The position numbers and the translations under genes are program-made. A stretch of DNA of 64,000 nucleotides. Source: Eledone cirrhosa. Taxonomy: Eukaryota. Under the pieces are notes generated by a model. That model saw only the letters and a program-made list of their open reading frames with translations, was not told the DNA's origin and made no database searches. The DNA lies in assembly GCA_964016885.1 (NCBI GenBank), contig OZ024755.1, positions 38,440,001 to 38,504,000 on the forward strand. The letters are read 5' to 3'. Of this stretch, positions 31,721 through 32,882 are shown piece after piece (the stretch's first letter is position 1; each line of letters begins with the position of its first letter).

Positions 31721-32071
31721 TTATTTACCAACACTTTTAAGTTTATTGTTCCACTTATTAGAGATGGACTTGTCAAGTAGATGTTTCATTTTTTCTGAGA
31801 GGAGCAAATAATCGCTATTATAAGCAATACCATCACGTTTTCTCAACATATTTTGTTGCTTCCGGAGTTTAATGAGCATCAACATTTCCTGGATACGAGA
31901 AACATCTTCAAAATCATTTGGGCTGATGTTTGGTATATCGTTTATGTTTCTTACTTGATATTGGTCTATTTCCAGTGGAACACGTTGCATGTTATTCATT
32001 TGGTGTATCAGAGCACTCTGGCTATGAAGTACAACACAGCACAACACAATCAGTATTGGAATCAAATTCAT
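31721..32071 (-). CDS. Secreted prepro-neuropeptide, 116 aa, ELH/CRF/DH44-like, predicted 35-aa amidated product
   Basis: Signal peptide MNLIPILIVLCCVVLHSQS; RKR convertase site; DGIAYNSDYLLLSEKMKHLLDKSISNKWNNKLKSV followed by GK-stop (amidation signal); splice acceptor ttctttgtcatatttcag 4 nt before the ATG; AATAAA at 31634-31629. Confidence 0.85.
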   Translation of the reverse strand: MNLIPILIVLCCVVLHSQSALIHQMNNMQRVPLEIDQYQVRNINDIPNISPNDFEDVSRIQEMLMLIKLRKQQNMLRKRDGIAYNSDYLLLSEKMKHLLDKSISNKWNNKLKSVGK

Positions 32072-32882
32072 CCTTCTGAAATATGACAAAGAAACAAACA
32101 GAAGTTTAATTAAAATAGATGTAAAATGTATAAAAAGCTAGCCTCTAATTCAAATGTTTATAAACTCTTTACTTGAAAAAAAAAAAACTCCTGCCAAATC
32201 AATGGGTGGCAGTGGTTCCAGCTACACACATCGAAAGACTGGTGTAGTGGTTCTGAGAACAACGCGACTTTACAGATGATCAATGCAAATTGACAATGGA
32301 AAGGTACTCCTGCTCGAGTTAGAAGAGAACTATTGACCTTAAGGAGGAGCAGTGACCTCTGATTGTATTCAGCAACTGAAACAAATATGAAGTACTCCAA
32401 ATCCAATGCTACTAGGGTCGGCCCTGGTTCTTCTTATTGTGTAAACTCGGCCAGACTAGATTAGAATAGATTATTTTTTAACAGAATTTTGTAAAGATTT
32501 TTTAGTGTCAGACTTTGTTAATATTTATTGGGCTGCAGTCATTTATACTAAGTTATGTATAAATGGCTCTTAATTAATTACACAATAGTTAAAACAACTG
32601 GTGCACTAAAAAAATCTGATGTAAAGAAAGTATTCAATGTTAGTAACATATTACCATAGATTCATCTTAAAATGTCTCCATAAACAAAACATTCTCATCA
32701 GATATTAATTCATAAATGACATCACCAATACGCTTCACTTTTAAAAAGTAAAATGGCAACTAAATATCCAGGGAAAATATCCAAGGAAAAATACAACCCC
32801 ATCCACCGAAGAAACCCCCACCCCAAAAACCCAGCACATACTTAAATTTTAAAAAAAGATACCTAGGAAGTTATTTCCCTTC

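Follow-up and report, generated by a model that had tools for sequence, protein, structure and literature searches.

A 64,000-nucleotide stretch of DNA from the octopus Eledone cirrhosa (assembly GCA_964016885.1, contig OZ024755.1, positions 38,440,001 to 38,504,000; hereafter, the window) carries on its minus strand what is almost certainly a real prohormone-type gene. Its predicted product, a secreted, amidated neuropeptide precursor that would release a 35-residue peptide, is well supported by the arrangement of the precursor and by a full-length orthologue in Octopus vulgaris. We rate at about even the view that this peptide is a strongly diverged member of the family that unites egg-laying hormone (ELH), DH44 and CRF, and that it acts through the class B receptor of CRF type in octopus. 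The assignment to this family is suggestive and unproven, and the gene is not filed here as a family member. An earlier, sequence-only reading of the same DNA had proposed an ELH/CRF-family hormone; this is still the best single guess, though short of proof.

The gene consists of an uninterrupted open reading frame (ORF) on the minus strand at 31721..32071, encoding 116 amino acids and a stop codon. The interval 31721..32078 proposed earlier agrees with it at one end, whereas at the other it takes in the putative splice acceptor. The ATG sits 4 nt (AAGG) past a pyrimidine-rich tract ending in TTCAG, with the predicted junction at 32076/32075, and no ATG occurs within the 64 nt upstream of the ORF start. 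Thus, the acceptor-like site reported 4 nt before the ATG is found where it was said to be, with TTCAG at 32076, as a prediction from the sequence. In CRH and ELH genes, the coding sequence resides in one exon after an intron in the 5′ untranslated region (5′UTR), an arrangement that the uninterrupted ORF and the predicted acceptor may parallel. Hydropathy of the leader is high, with a Kyte-Doolittle peak of 3.8 over 9 residues; the signal peptide was judged by hydropathy only, and its cleavage after about 20 residues was estimated by eye. Assuming a 20-residue signal, the propeptide comprises 56 residues; RKR occupies residues 77-79, and the 35-mer DGIAYNSDYLLLSEKMKHLLDKSISNKWNNKLKSV is followed by GK and the stop codon. 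All of these elements, the signal peptide, the propeptide of about 60 amino acids, RKR, the 35-mer and GK-stop, had been recognized before, and they are borne out by the ORF, by hydropathy and by the layout of the O. vulgaris protein. The predicted amidated 35-mer (DGIAY...KSV-amide) has a monoisotopic mass of 4063.16 Da, against 3995.08 for its O. vulgaris counterpart. The mature peptide contains neither Cys nor Pro, and its hydrophobic moment of up to 0.52/0.64 is that of an amphipathic helix, a property that is not family-specific.

The homologue searches showed a single relative. In three word-index searches, which spanned proteins of 63-242 residues and accepted 1 of 3, 1 of 100 and 1 of 2 candidates, the only match was the O. 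vulgaris hypothetical protein CAI9720977.1 (UniRef100_A0AA36AUB0), which is 52% identical over the full length (E 3.7e-20). The same protein was the only match in an exhaustive profile search of 1.84 billion representative proteins; proteins of other lengths were covered by this exhaustive search (E<=0.001), where relatives more than 50% identical are merged into one representative. A conserved orthologue, which the sequence-only reading had called for, is thereby at hand. The identity between the two octopods is unevenly distributed along the precursor: 14/20 in the leader, 21/56 in the propeptide, 3/3 in RKR and, in the mature peptide, which aligns without gaps, 13/17 at residues 1-17 and 8/18 at residues 18-35. 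RKR, the 35-residue length and GK are unchanged, and the indels keep the frame. Since the N-terminal half of the mature peptide and the processing sites are conserved above the propeptide, the processed peptide appears to be under selection.

In O. vulgaris, the gene model bears no assigned function or family; it has a shorter propeptide and 32 extra N-terminal residues (a 138-aa start). Extra residues 18-32 align to the translation of the window's pyrimidine tract. For this reason, and because an upstream ATG is missing, we rejected the 138-aa start for the window, and the start of the O. vulgaris model is likely mis-called, too far upstream. The word "unannotated", applied earlier to the gene, holds for a label of function or family but not for the gene as such, given the O. 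vulgaris hypothetical model. As a separate observation, the probably over-long N-terminus of that model (residues 1-32) would mask the signal peptide in automated neuropeptide screens.

The window is repeat-rich animal DNA, and the gene is flanked by a 5.5-kb minisatellite and by high-copy interspersed repeats, a setting where a spurious ORF or a dead gene might be suspected. We consider such an explanation highly improbable, as it is opposed by the intact, full-length orthologue, the frame-preserving indels, the region-specific conservation and the single-copy depth. It is opposed also by a layout test combining a leader, a dibasic site and G-basic-stop, which was passed by one of the 153 ATG-initiated ORFs of at least 60 aa in the window and by none of the 2,588 ORFs in 60 simulated windows. 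In contigs of three DNA-like sequencing runs from one sample, the ORF is spanned without a single substitution, at a single-copy depth equal to that of unique flanking DNA, so an error of assembly is excluded; the three runs behave as genomic DNA, may derive from the window's own source sample and do not count as independent support. Among the matches listed for these three genomic-type runs there was no splice joint at 32076, which is uninformative on splicing. No tandem paralogue of the precursor is present in the 64-kb window.

Table 1. Elements of the predicted peptide precursor gene in the window (positions are those of the 64,000-nt stretch).
Feature	Position	Strand	Basis
Whole coding sequence, 116 aa + stop	31721..32071	-	ORF, full-length orthologue CAI9720977.1, DNA contigs
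Predicted signal peptide, residues 1 to ~20	32012..32071	-	Hydropathy; 14/20 identical to O. vulgaris
Propeptide, residues 21-76; extra RK at 70-71 in Eledone cirrhosa only	31844..32011	-	21/56 identical; main indels here
RKR, predicted prohormone-convertase site	31835..31843	-	3/3 conserved
Predicted mature 35-residue peptide	31730..31834	-	O. vulgaris peptide of equal length, gapless; model coil, then helix
Gly-Lys-stop, predicted amidation signal	31721..31729	-	Conserved in O. vulgaris
Pyrimidine-rich tract ending TTCAG, predicted 5′UTR intron acceptor	32076..32135	-	Sequence only
AATAAA, candidate polyadenylation signal, ~87 nt 3′ of the stop	31629..31634	-	Sole AATAAA/ATTAAA in 30501-31720 on the minus strand

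The peptides of both octopods were compared with 25 ELH/DH44 precursors from Supplementary note S2 of PMC6425005, for which residue classes were compiled by hand; here and below, statements on published work apply to excerpts of each source. Closest among known peptides are the last repeat of Platynereis DH44-1, the scaphopod, bivalve and chiton DH44 and the gastropod ELH. With these lophotrochozoan peptides, the octopus peptide shares the dibasic site, a short lead, a hydrophobic-small-hydrophobic-N head, Leu at column 10, an acidic residue at column 12 and the L-x-x-hydrophobic-G-basic end, and its 33-residue span equals that of the last Platynereis repeat and of the first scaphopod repeats. 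It differs by an Ala in place of Ser2, by Tyr in columns 3 and 7, by Lys in column 13, by Trp at -8 and by Asn instead of Arg/His at -7; moreover, the octopus precursor contains one peptide and no C-terminal extension, identity does not exceed 7/33, and there is no profile match. In more general terms, a signal (as judged by hydropathy), a dibasic site and a C-terminally amidated peptide of about 30-45 residues are features common to the ELH, DH44 and CRF precursors, and the octopus precursor shows all of them by prediction. Vertebrate CRF and urocortin and insect DH44 also resemble the octopus peptide, as predicted, in being amidated peptides at the precursor end with an unstructured head, a long helix and a hydrophobic residue followed by GK; however, CRF, urocortin and DH44 peptides are about 38-46 residues long, compared with 35 in octopus, and no Pfam or PDB match connects them.

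No single comparison tells more than that with the last Platynereis DH44-1 repeat: it starts with FAFNSE and its paralogue with LSINSE, and the octopus heads read IAYNSD and VAYNSD; the Platynereis pair indicates that Ser-to-Ala and aliphatic-to-aromatic changes occur within ELH/DH44. This repeat runs 33 residues to the amide, as do both octopus peptides, and is identical to them at 7/33 positions in a gapless hand count. The first Graptacme repeat has the same 33-residue span, with 7/33 and 6/33 identities to the octopus peptides. Both repeats were picked by eye from the 25 printed precursors and serve as an illustration, not as proof.

With the residue classes widened to annelid and nemertean members, the N-terminal columns agreed at 10/14 positions in the window peptide and at 9/14 in the O. 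vulgaris one, both at offset 2 (plain-shuffle p = 0.016 per peptide; joint column-shuffle p = 0.0036). Still out of line with the family are Tyr in column 7, Leu in column 9, Lys in column 13 and the Asn at -7. A motif score limited to the N-terminus gave p = 0.016/0.082 against shuffles and 0.10/0.20 when the pattern was kept. Under the narrower first classes, the O. vulgaris peptide reached 14/23 broad and 8/13 strict positions (plain-shuffle p = 0.036 and 0.0008). At the C-terminus, the strict positions of R-x-[RK]-L-x-x-[LI]-amide were matched at 2/4 in the window peptide and at 3/4 in that of O. vulgaris. The ELH register, first noticed as an alignment to the N-terminal ELH motif, is real, but in unbiased tests it is inseparable from a generic amphipathic helix.

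An AlphaFold model built on the two-sequence alignment (mean predicted local distance difference test score, pLDDT, of 59.8) showed residues 79-85 as coil and 86-114 as one helix, with pLDDT of 70-77 across residues 91-116. In a fold search with this model, the matches were helical hairpins of a generic kind (Z of at most 7.3, none of 48,161 at Z>=8), and no hormone was found among the best 50 matches. In the ESM Atlas, where the recognition value of 2087 lies under the 2300 mark, the neighbours were of a generic prohormone kind (Frey, DH31 and PDF at 0.91-0.92), and the C-terminal part was placed near NPY-type (0.84) and glucagon-type (Hormone_2; 0.83) clusters.

Published data provide the context for a family assignment. 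PMC6425005 recovered ELH/DH44 from none of its cephalopod datasets, including the predicted proteins of O. bimaculoides and the Euprymna genome, and proposed a likely loss in cephalopods, with a warning that divergent homologues could escape. Nevertheless, one transcript of O. vulgaris bears the annotation CRF receptor 2, a CRF receptor of O. bimaculoides is cited, and CRF-like immunoreactive cells have been reported in octopus (PMC5736919). According to PMC7200681, whose searched genomes include that of O. bimaculoides, molluscs have a single CRHR-like gene and many orphan receptors of Clusters A and B. That a receptor lacks a known ligand makes the ELH/DH44 reading likelier a priori and says nothing on the octopus peptide itself. 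The nudipleuran ELH is a precedent: it comprises 37-40 aa, lies at the precursor C-terminus, ends in Gly, has its C-terminus shifted to Asn/Met and was missed by earlier transcriptome surveys (10.1101/2023.12.21.572887), which suggests that drift of such a size happens within ELH. The oyster forms have 36-42 aa, with both termini conserved; the 38-residue oyster ELH had escaped mass spectrometry because of a ceiling at 4,000 m/z (PMC4200219).

Taken together, several lines argue for a strongly diverged ELH/DH44/CRF member. The processing sites and the peptide length are invariant, and the N-terminal half of the peptide is conserved far above the propeptide; the C-terminal, Gly-ending peptide has the layout of the nudipleuran and oyster forms; the column classes match at one and the same offset in both octopods; the Platynereis and Graptacme repeats share the span; and the model shows an unstructured head followed by one helix up to the amide. 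Besides, the place of a cephalopod ELH/DH44 is vacant in the excerpted surveys while a CRF-type receptor has apparently been kept, and nudipleuran ELH exemplifies how a divergent member may be overlooked.

A number of results weigh against this assignment. Under the narrower classes, the window peptide scored 12/23 broad and 6/13 strict, which is not significant against plain shuffles (p = 0.24 and 0.087); once shuffling preserved the order of hydrophobic and polar residues, the four tests under these classes gave p = 0.73, 0.55, 0.29 and 0.048, mostly not significant, and the widened classes gave 0.17 and 0.11, not significant either. A pattern relaxed after the query had been seen scored 13/13 and 12/13, which makes it an unfair test. 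Near-invariant hallmarks deviate as well, with Ser2 replaced by Ala, aliphatic 3 and Leu7 by Tyr and the usual Arg/His at -7 by Asn; Ala for Ser2 is seen in one Platynereis repeat, and Tyr at columns 3 and 7 was unseen among the family members compared. The similarity to ELH/CRF profiles expected by the sequence-only reading did not appear, as Pfam gave no family at E<=10 for the whole precursor, for its mature 35-mer or for the O. vulgaris protein, in a search whose HMMER filters drop weak matches. The PDB sequence searches returned no hormone chain, with unrelated matches at E 0.78-3.7 or none at all; no sequence bridging to known hormones emerged across the word-index and the 1.84-billion-representative searches; and neither a CRF nor an ELH cluster was listed among the ESM Atlas clusters (0.80-0.92). 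Finally, the octopus receptor assignment is an annotation quoted in the excerpted papers.

If the peptide is a divergent ELH/DH44 orthologue that escapes BLAST and HMM searches, it could be the endogenous agonist of the CRF-type receptor, produced by neurosecretory cells of the brain or optic gland and driving egg-laying together with the fasting, brooding state; we regard this scheme as tentative and rather doubtful. Leader removal, dibasic cleavage, basic trimming and Gly-dependent amidation are established steps of prohormone processing. In the octopus precursor, the leader would be removed, cleavage would follow RKR, the Lys would be trimmed and the Gly would direct amidation, to yield the 35-residue amide, for which we infer a neuroendocrine role upon release, perhaps in egg-laying, stress or feeding. 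Class B receptors bind CRF-type ligands at two sites. By analogy, the face W28/L32/V35 of the amidated C-terminal helix would bind the ectodomain of the receptor, whose transmembrane pocket would take up the conserved head, IAYNSDYLLL, with signalling through cyclic AMP.

The same data may be read in other ways. The peptide may be an amidated neuropeptide restricted to cephalopods or octopods and belonging to no known family, in which case its ELH-like register would be that of any amphipathic amidated helix. The lack of any database link beyond Octopus, the non-significant match against pattern-preserving shuffles and the hallmark substitutions common to both octopods agree with this; yet the polar head N-S-D stands in the family register at an equal offset in both species, a true family member (the Platynereis repeat) combines the Ala/aromatic variant with the equal span, and an apparently ligand-less CRF-type receptor exists, so that we find a lineage-specific peptide fairly unlikely. 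We consider unlikely, too, that the peptide serves class B1 receptors of a different group, those of the orphan Clusters A or B (glucagon/PTH/secretin-related), which are expanded in molluscs. These receptors are numerous and were orphan, with 18 family B transcript entries for O. bimaculoides (PMC7200681), the ESM Atlas offers the weak Hormone_2 cluster, a lead only, and YNSDY resembles the glucagon-type FTSDY motif. On the other hand, the N-terminal His/Tyr of glucagon-type peptides is missing, Pfam Hormone_2 gave no match at E<=10, and iPTH/PXXXamide, which is known as the ligand of Cluster B, is represented in Sepia by a peptide unlike this one (PMC7224569).

A salivary or venom-gland product, recruited from the endogenous gene or convergent, that mimics a DH44/CRF-type or another class B hormone of prey appears quite unlikely; a gland or venom peptide had been named as the alternative in the sequence-only reading. 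Octopus glands do make hormone mimics, along with 27 superfamilies of unexplained function, many of them cephalopod-restricted (10.64898/2026.02.02.703354), and overall identity between the two octopods is fairly low at 52% with a well-conserved signal peptide (14/20). However, the mimics reported in the excerpts of that gland survey are others, none of the DH44/CRF type, no paralogue occurs in the 64 kb or in the protein collection searched, and, cleavage sites aside, no part of the precursor is better conserved than the head of the peptide.

Among the known hormones compared, iPTH/PXXXamide, calcitonin/DH31 and NPY/F were rejected. The Sepia iPTH/PXXXamide resembles the octopus peptide in that it is amidated, follows a KR site and has SD close to its N-terminus, and it carries an SDQRIAE motif, Pro at -4 and a C-terminal extension (PMC7224569). 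In the octopus peptide there is no SDQR/IAE, no tail rich in Gly, no Pro at -4 and no extension past the C-terminus, and by eye only SD is shared with the excerpted Sepia, Lottia and Crassostrea precursors. The glucagon/secretin (Hormone_2) head reads His/Tyr-x-acidic-Gly-x-Phe-Thr-Ser-Asp; in the octopus peptide, the N-terminal His/Tyr is absent and, by eye, the spacing is off by one. Calcitonin/DH31, characterized by a C-terminal Pro-amide and, in calcitonin, an N-terminal disulfide, was rejected for want of a C-terminal Pro-amide and of Cys in the mature peptide, and O. bimaculoides has a separate calcitonin (PMC7200681). NPY/F was rejected in view of the missing RF/RY-amide end (end motif as in PMC4200219).

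The peptide appears to be functionally undescribed, as judged from the open-access searches. AYNSDYLLL had no occurrence in the main text of open-access papers, YNSDY had no match in the supplements of PMC6425005 (two of the six files in part) and PMC8557429, and topic searches of the open-access literature, with most subscription papers outside their scope, gave no title reporting a cephalopod ELH/DH44. A metagenome scan confirmed none of 106 pattern matches. The 35-residue candidate, present in two species, makes the published loss of cephalopod ELH/DH44 (PMC6425005) directly testable. If the peptide does belong to this family, a bilaterian-wide stress/reproduction pathway would be intact in octopus and could be tested in egg-laying, brooding and feeding; if it does not, the gene still codes for a peptide, hormone or gland product, that is conserved in octopus and was undescribed.

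In the surrounding DNA, a minisatellite with a 46-bp unit, repeated about 124 times at 92% matches, occupies 5.5 kb at 25769-31314 and ends about 400 nt 3′ of the stop codon. The presumed intron contains high-copy interspersed repeats at 32177-32450 and 32940-33100, with summed contig depths of about 30,000 and more than 10 million; the repeat at 32940-33100 resembles a short interspersed nuclear element, and similar stretches, among them a tandem pair of 177 bp at 36970-37306, lie upstream. At about 33210-33340, a moderately repeated stretch holds the inverted-repeat pair GCAAGCAAACAGC and GCTGTTTGCTTGC, about 110 nt apart, which by eye looks like a miniature inverted-repeat transposable element. 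On the plus strand, 52482-54098 encodes a reverse transcriptase of the long interspersed nuclear element type (RVT_1, E 9.3e-20) that carries C2H2 zinc fingers at its C-terminus; the ORF borders on an assembly gap of 200 N at 52280-52479. Two related plus-strand ORFs of 175 and 99 aa, at 41809-42336 and 43506-43805, gave no Pfam match at E<=0.01; a YIG motif in the 175-aa ORF is reminiscent of the GIY-YIG endonucleases of Penelope-like elements.
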